Virus record (IMG/VR): IMGVR_UViG_3300037418_002332
Source of the DNA: a virus
Lineage: Duplodnaviria; Caudoviricetes
Strand: one strand, 5' to 3'
DNA length: 64,000 nucleotides
The notes below the pieces were generated by a model, which had not been told where the DNA came from, did no database searches, and worked only from the letters and a program-made list of their open reading frames with translations. The translations under genes were made by a program, and so were the position numbers. This document shows, in pieces, positions 14,854-58,958 of this stretch. The number at the start of each line of letters is the position of its first letter. The stretch's first letter is position 1.

Positions 14854-15692
14854 TTCCCTCTATTGATAAATGGTGATTGATCAGAATAATCAATGAGCAC
14901 TTCACCATTCTTTTGCAACAATTCATTATCAGCTTGACTATCTTTGTCTTCAATCACGTTGTTTTCTTCAACCAACACATCATTGCCTGATTGATCTTCA
15001 ATTGGGTCTCCATCTTCATCATCAAGAGCCTTTGGAAGTTGATCAGTGCTTAACAAAGTATTAAATGCATCAATTGCATCATCACCAGTATCAAATTCTT
15101 CGTTGTTGTAACGGAACAACTCGCACTTCAAATCATATGTAAGTAGAGTGCCAAGCGGATGGAACAAGTTTTCATGTTCTACGAATAGAATTTCAAAAAT
15201 TTTATCAACCATAGGCATGTAAATCAAGTCGCCAGCCTTCGGAAATGATGCTTCAACTGAATAATCACCACCAGGACCGTTTTCTTCAGTCAGCGTTACA
15301 GTTTCATAAGGTGTCCAATCAGGTGATTCAGCAGGTTCAATTGGATTACCATATTCATCCAACACTTTTTCTTCATTTGATTCACGCCAACGACGTCTTG
15401 AAACTGTGAAAGTAATTTGATCACGTTGTTCTTCACCAAACATGGTCATGATTTCATTCTGACCTTCATAGTTATCATATGATTTGACGTAAACTTCAAT
15501 TTCAAACGCATAATTGAATTTGGCAAATGTATCATCACCAAAAAGTGGATCACGTTCGAACTGTTCTCTTGGTATATAACGAATGAACATGCCATTCATT
15601 CTGATTGCTTGAATGATCAAATCCTCAATCAACTTTTGTCGAGGCTTGAAAAAGTAGTTGTTAACGAACGGATTTGGTGATTTTTCAACCAT
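14847..15692 (-). CDS. gp14: neck protein
   Basis: 'YIPRE...LFGDD', 'IEVY', 'GDLIYMP', 'FEILFVEHE' and 'YDLKCELFRY' motifs; synteny. Confidence 0.92.
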   Translation of the reverse strand: MVEKSPNPFVNNYFFKPRQKLIEDLIIQAIRMNGMFIRYIPREQFERDPLFGDDTFAKFNYAFEIEVYVKSYDNYEGQNEIMTMFGEEQRDQITFTVSRRRWRESNEEKVLDEYGNPIEPAESPDWTPYETVTLTEENGPGGDYSVEASFPKAGDLIYMPMVDKIFEILFVEHENLFHPLGTLLTYDLKCELFRYNNEEFDTGDDAIDAFNTLLSTDQLPKALDDEDGDPIEDQSGNDVLVEENNVIEDKDSQADNELLQKNGEVLIDYSDQSPFINRGKW

Positions 15693-16444
15693 TAAGCGAT
15701 TTCATCCAATACTGGGAAGTTGCCTGTTGAGATGAGCTTTTCTTCAAGCTTATCAATTTCATCAATAGCTTCTGAATACATCGTTTGAGCATCTAAAGTG
15801 ACACCATTCAACAATGGAATGTTTGAATACAACTTCAGATTTTCTGCCCACTGACGTTTCATCAACGCAGTTGCATATCTCTTCAACCAACGATCTTGCC
15901 AGATAGAAGCATATTGATTAGGGTCAAGGAAAGCTTCAGTTTCAAAGATGATTTTATTACCTAGAACCATGATCTGTTGACCAGCTGCACCGTAAATTTC
16001 AACAGTGTTGGTAATCTTGCTGAAACGAATTGACGGAGTAGTGTTGAATAGGAAATTGATATCCGCCAATCTTGTCATAGCCACGTAATATGGAATGAGT
16101 GTGTAAGAAACATTATGATTCATGTTGTAAAATTCATCGCGGAGATACTGATAACGATCAGACATCCAACTAGAGTCAAAGTAACCAACAGGTGGCAGAA
16201 TGTTGGATACAGTCATGATAGTTTCCGGCAAATGGATTTTACCAGTGTCGATGTCTTCTTGAGTTATGGTATGAATATAGAGTGACTTTTCTGAACCGAG
16301 ATAGTGATAATCTCGATAAAAAGCTAATGCATCGTCTATTCTATCCATTGCTTGTTCATTCTCAACGTTGACTTGGATTACAGGCCATCCTAGACGACGG
16401 AAAATGTATGCTTTGAATTCTGCTTTTGATCTTGGTTCTGCCAT
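15692..16444 (-). CDS. gp13: neck protein
   Basis: 'YIFRRLGWPVIQVNV', 'WLKRYATAL' and 'GVTLDAQ' motifs; synteny. Confidence 0.93.
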   Translation of the reverse strand: MAEPRSKAEFKAYIFRRLGWPVIQVNVENEQAMDRIDDALAFYRDYHYLGSEKSLYIHTITQEDIDTGKIHLPETIMTVSNILPPVGYFDSSWMSDRYQYLRDEFYNMNHNVSYTLIPYYVAMTRLADINFLFNTTPSIRFSKITNTVEIYGAAGQQIMVLGNKIIFETEAFLDPNQYASIWQDRWLKRYATALMKRQWAENLKLYSNIPLLNGVTLDAQTMYSEAIDEIDKLEEKLISTGNFPVLDEIA

Positions 16445-16466
16445 GGAATTTCCTCTGGTTTATTCA

Positions 16467-16474
16467 TATTTATT
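16467..16474 (-). promoter_or_regulatory. T4-type late promoter (AATAAATA)
   Basis: AATAAATA on the - strand about 22 nt upstream of the gp13 ATG. Confidence 0.55.
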
Positions 16475-16522
16475 CCCTAAAGAAAAACAATCTTCCTTTA
16501 AAAATTTAGCTTTGGATAACTC

Positions 16523-16551
16523 TTGACTTCAAGCGTAGTTAAGCGCAAGCT
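16523..16551 (+). promoter_or_regulatory. sigma70-like promoter for the peptide gene
   Basis: TTGACT (16523-16528), 17-nt spacer, CAAGCT; shares 'CTCTTGACTT' with the promoter at 16842. Confidence 0.45.
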
Positions 16552-16586
16552 AATAATGCGAGGGGATTTAGAGGGAGTACCTGAAA

Positions 16587-16736
16587 ATGAAAGCAATATG
16601 CGCTCTGTGCGTAGCCATTTTCATGGCTGCGATTCAACCTCAAGCATCTCGAGCATGCACTGATCAATCCATGTGTGATGGGTTTCTTGGCGGCGGAAAT
16701 AACCAAAACCATAATTCTGCTGGCAATCACAATTAG
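16587..16736 (+). CDS. 49-aa putative secreted peptide with a Sec signal sequence, not in the track
   Basis: GAGGGAG SD at 16571-16577; MKAICALCVAIFMAAIQPQASRA|CTDQSMCDGFLGGGNNQNHNSAGNHN shows n-, h- and c-regions with an S-R-A cleavage site; flanked by a promoter and hairpins. Confidence 0.65.
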   Translation: MKAICALCVAIFMAAIQPQASRACTDQSMCDGFLGGGNNQNHNSAGNHN

Positions 16737-16786
16737 TTGAAGATTTGCTTCAAAGGTGAGAGCGGGTTGGGGATCTTTGGAGCAAA

Positions 16787-16829
16787 AAGGTGGTGGCCCA
16801 GGTGTGACCGCGTCGGGCCACCACTTTCT
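16787..16829 (+). terminator. intrinsic terminator (possibly bidirectional)
   Basis: GTGGTGGCCC (16790-16799) / GGGCCACCAC (16815-16824) is a perfect 10-bp stem, with an A-run before and TTTCT after. Confidence 0.7.
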
Positions 16830-16841
16830 AGAAGAAACCTC

Positions 16842-16870
16842 TTGACTTTATCTAAAATTTTAGGCATAGT
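16842..16870 (+). promoter_or_regulatory. sigma70 promoter, alphaproteobacterial type
   Basis: (C)TTGACT at 16842-16847, exact 17-nt spacer, CATAGT at 16865-16870. Confidence 0.65.
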
Positions 16871-16875
16871 GGTGT

Positions 16876-16993
16876 TGTTCTGGAGCTTGCCTAGCCTCTC
16901 CCTTCTGTTCCATGGGATGGGTGAGTTCTGGAAACCCACCGCGAGTCCGCCACTCCCCCCTTCGGTTAGGATCGCGGTGGGTTCTTCATTTTT
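16876..16993 (+). ncRNA. candidate ~118-nt trans-acting sRNA with anti-Shine-Dalgarno loops
   Basis: Directly follows the promoter. Stem 1 is 16882-16893/16918-16929 (G-U rich) around CCUCUCCCUUCU. Stem 2 is a perfect 12-bp 16933-16944/16972-16983 around ACUCCCCCCUU. A U-tract follows. Confidence 0.55.
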
Positions 16994-17594
16994 ATGAAGG
17001 CCAATAAGAATTGTTGGTGTAGTCCGTTGGAATTGGACTGGTGGATTTAATTGCTCTCGCGGCAAAAATGCACTTTGTTTCCCATGATGCGGCTGCTTGA
17101 CCGAAAGCAAAGCACGTTGGAGCATCCATCAAATTCAGGCTGTTATCATCAGCGATCCAAACGAAATCTGATGTACCTCCATGCCAACGATAGTTTCCTG
17201 CTGCGGCTCCAGCAGCCATTGCGAACCCTGCTAGAGTCGCTGCTCCGATGATACGAGCCTTGGACTCGTTGTCCATCGCGTAGCTTTTACCGTTGAAAGT
17301 GAACCCTGTTGCGATTCGGCGATCGCGCTCAGCATTCACTTCAGTTGACGTTACAACTTGAGCAACAGTTGACCAAACATATTTTGGAATACCATTGGTA
17401 ACAACAACCGAAACTGATGTTGGAATACGACCAGCTGGAATTGGATCGGCAGAAACAATTTCTTTCAATGTATGCGTAGCGTTTTCCCAACCAGCATATG
17501 CTGGGGATGTTTGATCATTACCAATCGTAAATGATCCACCAGGAAGGACTTCCTTCACGAAACTTGCGTCTGACTTCTTAATAAGTGCTAGCAT
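16992..17594 (-). CDS. tail fibre assembly protein / chaperone (DUF4376-like)
   Basis: 'VNAERDRRIATGF' and 'WIADDNS..LMDA..CFAFGQAA..W...IFAARAIK' are typical of DUF4376 proteins. Confidence 0.8.
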   Translation of the reverse strand: MLALIKKSDASFVKEVLPGGSFTIGNDQTSPAYAGWENATHTLKEIVSADPIPAGRIPTSVSVVVTNGIPKYVWSTVAQVVTSTEVNAERDRRIATGFTFNGKSYAMDNESKARIIGAATLAGFAMAAGAAAGNYRWHGGTSDFVWIADDNSLNLMDAPTCFAFGQAAASWETKCIFAARAIKSTSPIPTDYTNNSYWPS

Positions 17595-57239: not shown

Positions 57240-58958
57240 ATGGCGACATTCTTTGAAAAATTGCTTGGTGTGAATCTCACAAAAGATGAAGACGAAGCAA
57301 AAGCAAAAGGTGCTTTCCAACTCCCTGAACCACCGAAAAATGACGGTTCAATTGAAGTTGATAGCAGTAACTTTTTGCAATTCGGTACTTCATTTGATTA
57401 TGCAGTTCCTGAAGACGAAGTACAACTCATCACCAAGTATCGTGAAATGGCCGAGCAAATGGAATTTGATCGTGCTATCAACCACGTTGTTAATGAATTC
57501 TTTGCATATGATACTGACACCATGCCTGTATCCATCAACCTTGAAAACACAAAACTTTCAGATAACATCAAAAAGAAAATTACAACTGAATTTGACAACA
57601 TTTTGAAGATGTTGAACTTTGGTACTGATGCATATGAAATCTTCTCAAGATGGTATGTTGATGGCCGTTTGTATTACCAAAAAGTCATTGACGAACAAAA
57701 CAAGTCCAAGGGTATCCTTGCACTCAAGTATATTGATCCTCGTAAGATCCGTAAAGTCAGAAAAAAAATAGACGACAAATCTAACAAAACGACACAAAAC
57801 AATGTTAAAAACAACATCCGTCTCGATGTGCAATACAAAGAATTCTACGTTTACAACCCAACTGGCATTAACAACACCAATGTTCAGGGTCTACAAATCG
57901 AAAAGGATTCAATCACGTATGTTCACTCAGGAAAGTTTACCAGAGAAAACAAGACCGTCATCTCACACCTGCATAAAGCCATTCGTTGGTTCAATGTTTT
58001 AAGAAATATTGAAGACTCCGTCGTCATTTATCGTTTGTCACGTGCATCTGAAAAAAGAGTATTCAACATTGAACTAGGTGATTTGCCTCAGTCACAAGCT
58101 GAAGCTCACATGAAGAAAGTCATCGACAAATTCAGAAAGAGACTTTCATACAATCCACAAACTGGTGAAGTCATTGAACAAAAACGTTTCATGACTATGT
58201 TGGAAGACTTCTGGTTCGCAAAGCGCGATGGTAAAGGTACATCAGTTGAATTTCTTCAAGGTGGACAAAACCTTGGTGAAATGGAAGACGTTGATTACTT
58301 CAAGAAGAGATTCTATGAGTCATTAAACGTTCCAATTACTCGACTTGATCCAACCATTGGTTTCACTTTGGGTCGTGCATCGGAAATCACTCGTGAAGAA
58401 CTTGCATTCTACAAATTCATTTCACGTCTCCGTAAACGTTTCAGCTATTTGTTTGAAGACATTTTGAAGACTCAATTGATTTTGAAAAATATTTTGAAAG
58501 AACAAGAGTGGAATGATGTATACCAAGACATTCACTTCGATTACCTTGAAGATACTTACTTCAGTGAATTGAAAGAAACTGAAATTTGGCAAAACCGTTT
58601 CAACGCGGCTCGTGATACAGGTGTTGAAGGCAAATTGGTTTCGCGTCTATTTGTTCAAAAGAAATTGCTTCGACTTACTGATGAAGAAATTGCTGATGAA
58701 AATAAGCAACTTGAAAAAGAAAACAATGATGATCTTGAGATAAGCTTGCAACAACAAGCTGTTCAACAGGCTGGAGCACCTGAAGATGAAGATCGTGGTC
58801 CACAACCTGGACCTGAACCAAAGTTCCAACAAGGTTCTGAAGCTGATATCAGTGAACAACTTGAATACATTAAAGAAGAACTTGAAATAACCAAGCGTCG
58901 TCAACAACGTGAAGAAACTGAGTTCTATGAAATGTTGAAAGGTCTAATTGATGAATAA
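57240..58958 (+). CDS. gp20: portal protein
   Basis: 'ITKYREMA', '[11 protein letters not shown]', '[11 protein letters not shown]', '[20 protein letters not shown]', 'MLEDFW..KRDGKGT', 'PITRL' motifs; CTAAATA at 57203-57209 upstream. Confidence 0.97.

Follow-up and report, generated by a model that had tools for sequence, protein, structure and literature searches.

Small RNAs that act by base pairing are familiar from bacteria and prophages. To our knowledge, very few have been described in large lytic phages, and we know of none in a T4-type phage that acts in trans on another phage gene. The exposed loops of the c4 RNA pair with phage mRNA at or near the ribosome-binding site, keeping icd/ant untranslated, and the alpha-r14 or cuckoo (CcsR-type) RNAs present the loop motif CCUCCUCCC on repeated hairpins. 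The c4 RNA is an antisense RNA of phages P1 and P7 (Citron and Schuster 1990, as cited in PMC8201110). AbcR1 folds into three hairpins and carries two modules with UCCC, M1 in the loop of the first hairpin and M2 in the single strand that separates hairpins 1 and 2 (PMC4152367). PeSLs are repeated promoter/stem-loop families of T4-type phages, present in roughly 50 copies per genome, which lead into the Shine-Dalgarno (SD) sequence and start codon of a gene (PMC2839356).

The locus analyzed here is a candidate small-RNA gene in an IMG/VR record of an uncultured phage (247 kb, 97% complete, 39.8% GC). Bases 137197-201196 of this record form the window, the whole stretch of 64,000 nt that was analyzed, and coordinates refer to the window unless given as genome coordinates. 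The phage is a distant T4-type, with gp15, gp14 and gp13 homologs located just to the left of the element on the - strand, and is presumably lytic. Its gp15 shares only ~35% identity with the nearest cultured phages (cyanophages and the Sinorhizobium phiM12-type), and psbA is absent. The phage DNA is also present in soil and rhizosphere metagenomes; the phage is not known to be rhizobial. Across the genome, no 7-mers are more enriched upstream of genes than ATAAATA/CTAAATA (7-9 fold). Such boxes are found just upstream of late genes (on the - strand at 16473, 17639, 21136, 43363 and 49510, among others) and probably constitute the T4-type late promoter of the phage.

The element is located in a gap of 548 nt (16445-16991) between the gp13 homolog (15692-16444, - strand) and a DUF4376 tail-fibre-like gene (16992-17594, - strand, stop codon at 16992-16994). 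None of eight relatives recruited via the DUF4376 protein (55-76% identity) presents this gap: the gp13 and DUF4376 genes abut in G003, and in G001, a relative with a genome of 256 kb, a 138-aa ORF sits between them. This identifies the gap as an insert, and it comprises two + strand units that oppose the late genes, a 49-aa peptide gene with its own hairpin (hairpin 0) and the small-RNA candidate. A scan of metagenome contigs at the syntenic place did not find the element and added nothing new, and no IMG/VR loci were obtained using gp13, the peptide or the peptide alignment as probes.

The predicted non-coding RNA is ~117 nt long (16877-16993, + strand) and comprises hairpin 1, hairpin 2 and a U-rich tail. 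Folding of the + strand over 16868-16995 yields -52.2 kcal/mol (z -3.75, with 0/200 shuffles as low), versus -37.8 kcal/mol (z -1.04) for the - strand. The earlier note had described two stems with pyrimidine-rich loops followed by a U-tract, and the fold bears this out: the hairpins, at 16879-16932 and 16933-16983, abut with 0-1 unpaired nt between them and lead into the tail. Hairpin 1 consists of a 15-bp outer stem, an inner 4-bp helix and an 11-nt apical loop. Its energy is -24.5 kcal/mol on the + strand (z -3.2, 1/500 shuffles) and -9.0 kcal/mol on the - strand (z +1.05, worse than shuffles). Hairpin 1 exists only in + strand RNA because its outer stem contains six G.U pairs. This strand difference of 15.5 kcal/mol would rank about sixth to seventh among the 16,471 positions of a 60-nt-window scan, the windows of which did not frame hairpin 1 itself. 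Being confined to the + strand, hairpin 1 is not a terminator of the convergent late transcript, which rules out the possibility, raised in the earlier note against its own proposal, that all the hairpins merely terminate that transcript.

Hairpin 2 has a Watson-Crick stem of 12 bp and a large loop rich in C (ACUCCCCCCUUC...). It folds at -28.4 kcal/mol on the + strand and -28.8 kcal/mol on the - strand, begins 8 nt beyond the stop codon of the convergent DUF4376 gene, and is likely a bidirectional terminator. The U-rich tail UUCUUCAUUUUUAU that follows on the + strand (16984-16997) overlaps the DUF4376 stop codon, and the - strand tail after the hairpin is only UUUCC. Hairpin 0 (16786-16823), the terminator of the peptide cassette, folds on both strands (+ strand -26.7 kcal/mol, z -4.65; - strand -23.1 kcal/mol, z -3.5). 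The combination of a GC-rich stem and a U-run expected of a terminator is found on the + strand for hairpin 2, with UUCUUCAUUUUU, and on the - strand for hairpin 0, with UUUUUG. Since the better U-run of hairpin 0 is on the - strand, it is likely a stop for DUF4376-derived late transcripts too. A consensus terminator scan misses hairpins 0 and 2 because their loops exceed 8 nt. The segment had also been said to be much more GC-rich than its flanks; at 57% GC the RNA does stand out from the genome (39.8%), but the flanking peptide and DUF4376 genes are themselves raised, at 45-46%. ARAGORN detected no tRNA in the element. It is overlapped by a 130-aa ORF on the - strand, for which a family scan found no match, and by an 86-aa ORF on the + strand. 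A stand-alone small-RNA unit on the + strand, with structure specific to that strand and a terminator-like 3' end, is supported in silico.

As for the promoter, the motif claimed in the earlier note is present: C-TTGACT (16841-16847) is followed by a 17-nt spacer and CATAGT (16865-16870). The sigma-70-like candidate, TTGACT-17-CATAGT (16842-16870, + strand), matches 9/12 positions of the sigma-70 consensus and places the predicted start near 16877, 2 nt ahead of hairpin 1. In this genome, however, 9/12 matches occur at 1.13 per kb in coding versus 1.26 per kb in intergenic DNA, and locally 11 matches were found against 8.7 expected. Because such matches are equally frequent in coding DNA, the promoter alone is not evidence; the match is at chance level, and its sole weight is its position 2 nt before hairpin 1. 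Sites of the CTTGACTT...TATAAT type recur across the genome. AACTGGC was considered as a promoter box and rejected, its instances being mostly inside genes.

The 247-kb genome, both strands included, contains only 42 pyrimidine tracts of the type seen in loop 1 (CCUCUCCCUUCU, 16895-16906) and loop 2 (CUCCCCCCUUC, 16953-16963), these two among them, and the anti-SD motif UCCC is found in both loops. In loop 1 the UCCC is paired in the weak 4-bp inner helix and the 11-nt apical loop of hairpin 1, UUCUGUUCCAU, is fully open (0.07 kcal/mol to free); opening the 18-nt loop-1 site costs 5.7 kcal/mol. Partners for both loops were searched by scanning both strands of the whole genome and comparing 342 start regions. 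Mean pairing with start regions versus background was -10.9 versus -9.4 kcal/mol and -11.2 versus -10.3 kcal/mol for the two loops. Among the loop-1 duplex matches there surfaced a + strand segment outside the window, at genome ~58021-58095, with the hallmarks of a tRNA (GCCATAGCTCAGCTGGGAGAGCGC ... GGTTCGATCCC), and phage tRNA genes are probably located around this position.

The outstanding partner of loop 1 is a 242-aa orphan gene on the + strand, identified as an ORF outside the window (genome 68600-69328; L091:6601-7329) and 85 kb from the element. The antisense segment CCUCUCCCUUCUGUUCCAUG (16895-16914, + strand) is complementary to genome 68574-68592, which spans -26 to -8 of the start of this gene and covers its SD, AAGGGGAG. 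The duplex includes 14 perfectly paired nt, amounts to 17 bp in all with one bulge and has an energy of -29.7 kcal/mol; the next-best of the 342 start regions for loop 1 reaches -23.4 kcal/mol. When the 24-nt loop segment was shuffled, 0/2000 shuffles had a complement of 14 nt in any start region (two reached 13, the longest seen), and in an energy control 0/150 reached -29.7 kcal/mol (mean -22.9, sd 1.7). Opening the target site costs 1.4-3.4 kcal/mol, leaving a net pairing gain of ~-21 kcal/mol after opening costs. Moreover, the two best non-self loop-1 sites in the whole genome, on either strand, are 170 nt apart in a single leader, that of the 68600 gene. Loop 1 thereby presents an accessible seed whose complementarity to its target goes beyond chance, as is looked for in a trans-acting antisense small RNA. 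These results modify the target range and the two-loop design set out in the earlier note. The evidence points to one phage gene rather than to many host mRNAs, and an anti-SD role is supported in silico for loop 1 but not for loop 2, for which no contiguous or outstanding partner was found in the phage genome.

The two partners also share the 12-mer ATCTAAAATTTT, which lies inside the promoter spacer (16850-16861, + strand) and includes a possible alternative -10 box, TAAAAT. The 12-mer has exactly two copies in the 247-kb genome, both on the + strand and one upstream of each partner, the second being at genome 68546, 28 nt upstream of the target site. A direct local score of at least 24, which corresponds to sharing the 12-mer, is reached by 1.3% of random segments. 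For the whole 215-nt region against the whole genome, in turn, an antisense local match of such score is expected about twice by chance. The significance of the match hence rests on the open-loop position, the start-region position, the second site and the 12-mer, all of them noticed post hoc. A rough joint product of these four coincidences is ~1e-4, put together after the data had been seen. Both loci are GC-rich islands, and shared ancestry or a recombination relic could therefore also yield such repeats; no extended homology that would mark a duplication was found between the element and target loci.

The 242-aa protein has a plausible signal peptide and a long low-complexity body rich in Gly, Asn, Asp and His, and its gene lies in a 53%-GC island of the 40%-GC phage. 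The protein has no Pfam family and no true homolog, the matches being low-complexity only, and an atlas match scoring 0.80 was discarded as chance level. From its composition, it could be metal-binding or extracellular matrix-like. No recognizable sigma-70 promoter was found for the gene, and a search of the relatives G001-G005 with the first 70 residues of the protein yielded no counterpart. RNA and target thus co-occur, yet in this one genome only. The second loop-1 site (L091:6407-6438, genome 68406-68437) is imperfect and coincides in part with a small intrinsic terminator, GGAAGGCUUCC followed by a U-run, which closes an upstream two-ORF unit; loop-1 pairing there would open the 5' arm of this terminator. 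Downstream of the gene, a 10/12 promoter match (TTGACT-17-TAAAAT, L091:7548-7576) is followed by ~350 nt, up to 7927, before the next small gene; this stretch holds no + strand ORF of at least 45 aa and could represent either an extended leader or a further non-coding unit.

The 64-kb window produced no Rfam match at the gathering score, and the region 16450-17050 produced none at E<=10, including AbcR, alpha-r14, alpha-r15 and cuckoo-type models. Searches by blastn against 50,697 phage records and for an exact 23-mer of the element in IMG/VR returned nothing. Three of the relatives G001-G004 are at least 90% complete, and neither blastn nor a covariance model found a homolog of the element in these four; in the 61%-complete fragment G005, blastn found none either. 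Short matches in G001 lie inside coding sequence and were dismissed as chance. The single-sequence covariance model, run on the phage's own genome and on the four relatives, recovered itself in the former and otherwise a sole match in G002 (13 bits, E 0.2 per genome). The G002 hairpin (L019:1501-1599, - strand; G002:C1:114746-114844) is terminator-like and located between convergent genes. The loop, CCCCUUCCGUUAGGA, is almost that of hairpin 2, with which it shares CCCCUUCNGUUAGGA, but the stem is wholly different; the G002 hairpin may be kin to hairpin 2, in which case it would fit a terminator role there. Of the 60 occurrences of the loop motif CCCCTTCNGTTAGGA in IMG/VR, only the G002 copy is in a hairpin loop, which leaves hairpin 2 with a single possible relative and without a family.

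With respect to a host origin, two 18-mers of the element had 16 and 2 matches in 185,579 bacterial and archaeal genomes, where ~17 are expected; the matches fall in unrelated phyla and none extends beyond 20 nt, and this origin was rejected. Contigs from three DNA runs were compared: those that cover the element (X5 and X6) are identical to the window, X7 contributes only short flanking pieces and X8 none; no RNA run is among the sequencing runs listed as carrying the phage. Because the phage DNA is identical across runs, there is no microdiversity with which to test pairs. Likewise, since no homolog of either the small RNA or its target was found in the five relatives, IMG/VR, phage GenBank or 5.8 bn proteins, there is no covariation.

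The neighboring unit of the insert is the 49-aa exported-peptide gene (16587-16736, + strand, SD GAGGGAG). A homolog in G001 (L118:1507-1644, - strand; G001:C1:43415-43552) is 47% identical (E 4e-8) and is found at a different genome position, with its own terminator and opposed to its neighbors. The two peptides have the conserved core C-T-x-x-x-C-D/E-G-F-L-G-G-G-N-N, and the SD AGAGGGAG is common to both phages. No RNA unit follows the G001 homolog and no antisense partner was found anywhere in that genome, so the peptide cassette and the RNA unit are separable. A word-based search among 5.8 bn proteins detected no homolog of the peptide. The peptide and the 242-aa protein were also compared as possible paralogs, and rejected as such: BLASTP gave an E-value of 0.088 through composition only, and DNA alignment was uninformative.

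From the sequence features, folds, complementarity and statistics described above, we infer the transcription of the unit, the ends of its transcript, its pairing in vivo and the outcome. Our preferred reading, about which our opinion is evenly balanced, is that the element encodes a + strand trans-antisense small RNA that represses the 68.6-kb gene by SD occlusion. A non-coding RNA of ~105-130 nt would be read from the + strand, against the flow of the late structural genes. Hairpin 1 would present its open 11-nt loop, followed by the terminator hairpin and the U-rich tail. The open loop would kiss the 5' UTR of the phage gene at 68600, in the loop-to-linear manner of the c4 RNA of P1 and P7 (cited in PMC8201110). 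Pairing would then extend to 17 bp over the SD, and translation initiation of the 242-aa gene would be blocked, with the second site 170 nt upstream possibly adding to repression. Because the RNA gene and the late DUF4376 operon are convergent, late read-through as far as hairpin 0 could, speculatively, silence the RNA or titrate it away and so free the target late in infection. A full timer of this kind in a jumbo phage, with an early RNA from the host-type promoter holding the 68600 gene untranslated until late collision and the perfect complement remove it, seems doubtful to us.

The main rival holds that there is no functional small RNA. Hairpins 0 and 2 would be bidirectional terminators or insulators that serve the DUF4376 operon, the peptide cassette and the gp13 promoter, the promoter match would be due to chance, and the complementarity and the 12-mer would be recombination relics of two imported GC-rich islands. 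We regard this combination of terminators and relic as a genuine possibility, though on balance not a probable one. It accounts well for hairpin 2, which is 8 nt past the DUF4376 stop and equally stable on both strands, and for the - strand U-run of hairpin 0. Termination upstream of gp13 makes sense, since that gene is served by a late-type ATAAATA box of its own at 16473. The lack of enrichment of 9/12 promoter matches between genes, the like-looped G002 hairpin between convergent genes with no promoter, and the high GC content of both loci all agree with it. What it does not explain is hairpin 1, which is absent from the - strand and has no U-tract, so that termination gives no reason for its existence. 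Nor is the inverted repeat placed at random, as it falls in an open apical loop at one locus and on the SD of a gene at the other, with no extended inter-locus homology to mark a duplication. Another explanation, which we deem unlikely, is that the element is a gene-less cassette of the PeSL type, composed of an early promoter and a stem-loop, or the 3' UTR of the peptide mRNA, and in either case would have arisen as a by-product of the shuffling of modules in a T4-type genome. The PeSL form (PMC2839356) is indeed reproduced by hairpin 0 with a sigma-70-like promoter 18 nt further on, and the absence of the insert from relatives, together with the displaced peptide cassette of G001, marks the region as plastic. 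The weak + strand U-run of hairpin 0 would, in addition, make read-through from the peptide gene possible. PeSLs, though, are repeated and precede an SD and ORF; here the promoter of a single-copy element leads into two hairpins with no family-supported ORF behind, and a dead cassette accounts for neither hairpin 1 nor the start-region match.

Two further explanations assign the RNA other targets. The earlier note had envisaged an AbcR-like, Hfq-dependent small RNA, the two CU-rich loops of which would silence many host mRNAs, such as those of ABC transporters and receptors. Both loops do contain UCCC or CUCCC, and their pairing is somewhat stronger with start regions than with background; loop 2, having no outstanding phage target, would be free for host targets. 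Nevertheless, any CU-rich loop pairs with any SD, and the assignment to AbcR, alpha-r14 or alpha-r15 failed in the Rfam comparison even at E<=10, as did that to cuckoo-type models; the loops CCUCUCCCUUCU and CUCCCCCCUUC depart from the cuckoo type, and none of the listed pyrimidine tracts contains CCTCCTCCC. The architecture differs as well, two abutting hairpins with no single-stranded linker standing against the three hairpins with M1 and M2 of AbcR1 (PMC4152367). The element 18-mers occur only at chance level in bacterial genomes, in unrelated phyla, and we find this explanation quite unlikely. A type-I toxin-antitoxin-like pair, in which the RNA would pair with the mRNA of the adjacent 49-aa peptide, appears very improbable to us. 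The genes are adjacent, and the peptide start region, at -16.7 kcal/mol with loop 1 and -20.4 kcal/mol with loop 2, ranks in the top 5% and 2% of the 342 start regions, respectively. Yet the best duplex with the peptide mRNA, at ~-22 kcal/mol against first percentiles of -19.4 and -21.2 kcal/mol, is in the top 1% of single genome windows and is not outstanding, because it is one of ~28 such windows tried. Furthermore, the G001 peptide homolog has no RNA partner nearby or genome-wide, and the peptide carries a cleavable signal peptide rather than the hydrophobic-helix pattern of type I toxins.

The preferred reading of a trans-antisense RNA directed at the 68600 gene has the merit of defining a concrete and cheap test pair, an RNA of ~117 nt and a 5' UTR, joined by a 17-bp match that mutations can disrupt and then re-establish. 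If it is true, orphan RNA genes in the "terminator" gaps of structural operons can exert gene-specific control, and an exported protein rich in Gly, Asn, Asp and His, and perhaps an exported peptide, are functions that the phage must dose or time. If it is false, the locus is an ordinary bidirectional terminator pair in a plastic spot.

Compared with known systems, hairpins 0 and 2 resemble bidirectional intrinsic terminators in having perfect GC-rich stems that are stable on both strands and located right after stop codons, whereas hairpin 1 is strand-specific and has no U-tract, and the loops, of 12 nt or more, are unusually large. Like PeSLs, the locus has a sigma-70-like promoter beside a GC-rich stem-loop able to stop transcription from upstream, and it occupies a variable position in a T4-type genome with an ORFan adjacent. 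Unlike them, the element is single-copy, as judged by blastn and covariance model, leads into two hairpins and no gene, and has an antisense match to a distant gene. As in AbcR1/AbcR2 (alpha-r15), a UCCC in the first-hairpin loop could mask an SD in an RNA of ~110-120 nt with a 3' terminator hairpin, but the element has one long, specific 17-bp match to a single phage gene in place of short seeds for many host mRNAs. The claim is specific and drawn from one genome. The element resembles c4 in being small, structured and phage-encoded, and in having a target leader with two sites complementary to the RNA. The sequences themselves are not similar, and the target here is an exported low-complexity protein; c4 is cut from the same transcript as its target, within a temperate-phage immunity operon, whereas here the RNA gene and its target are 85 kb apart in a T4-like, presumably lytic, genome.
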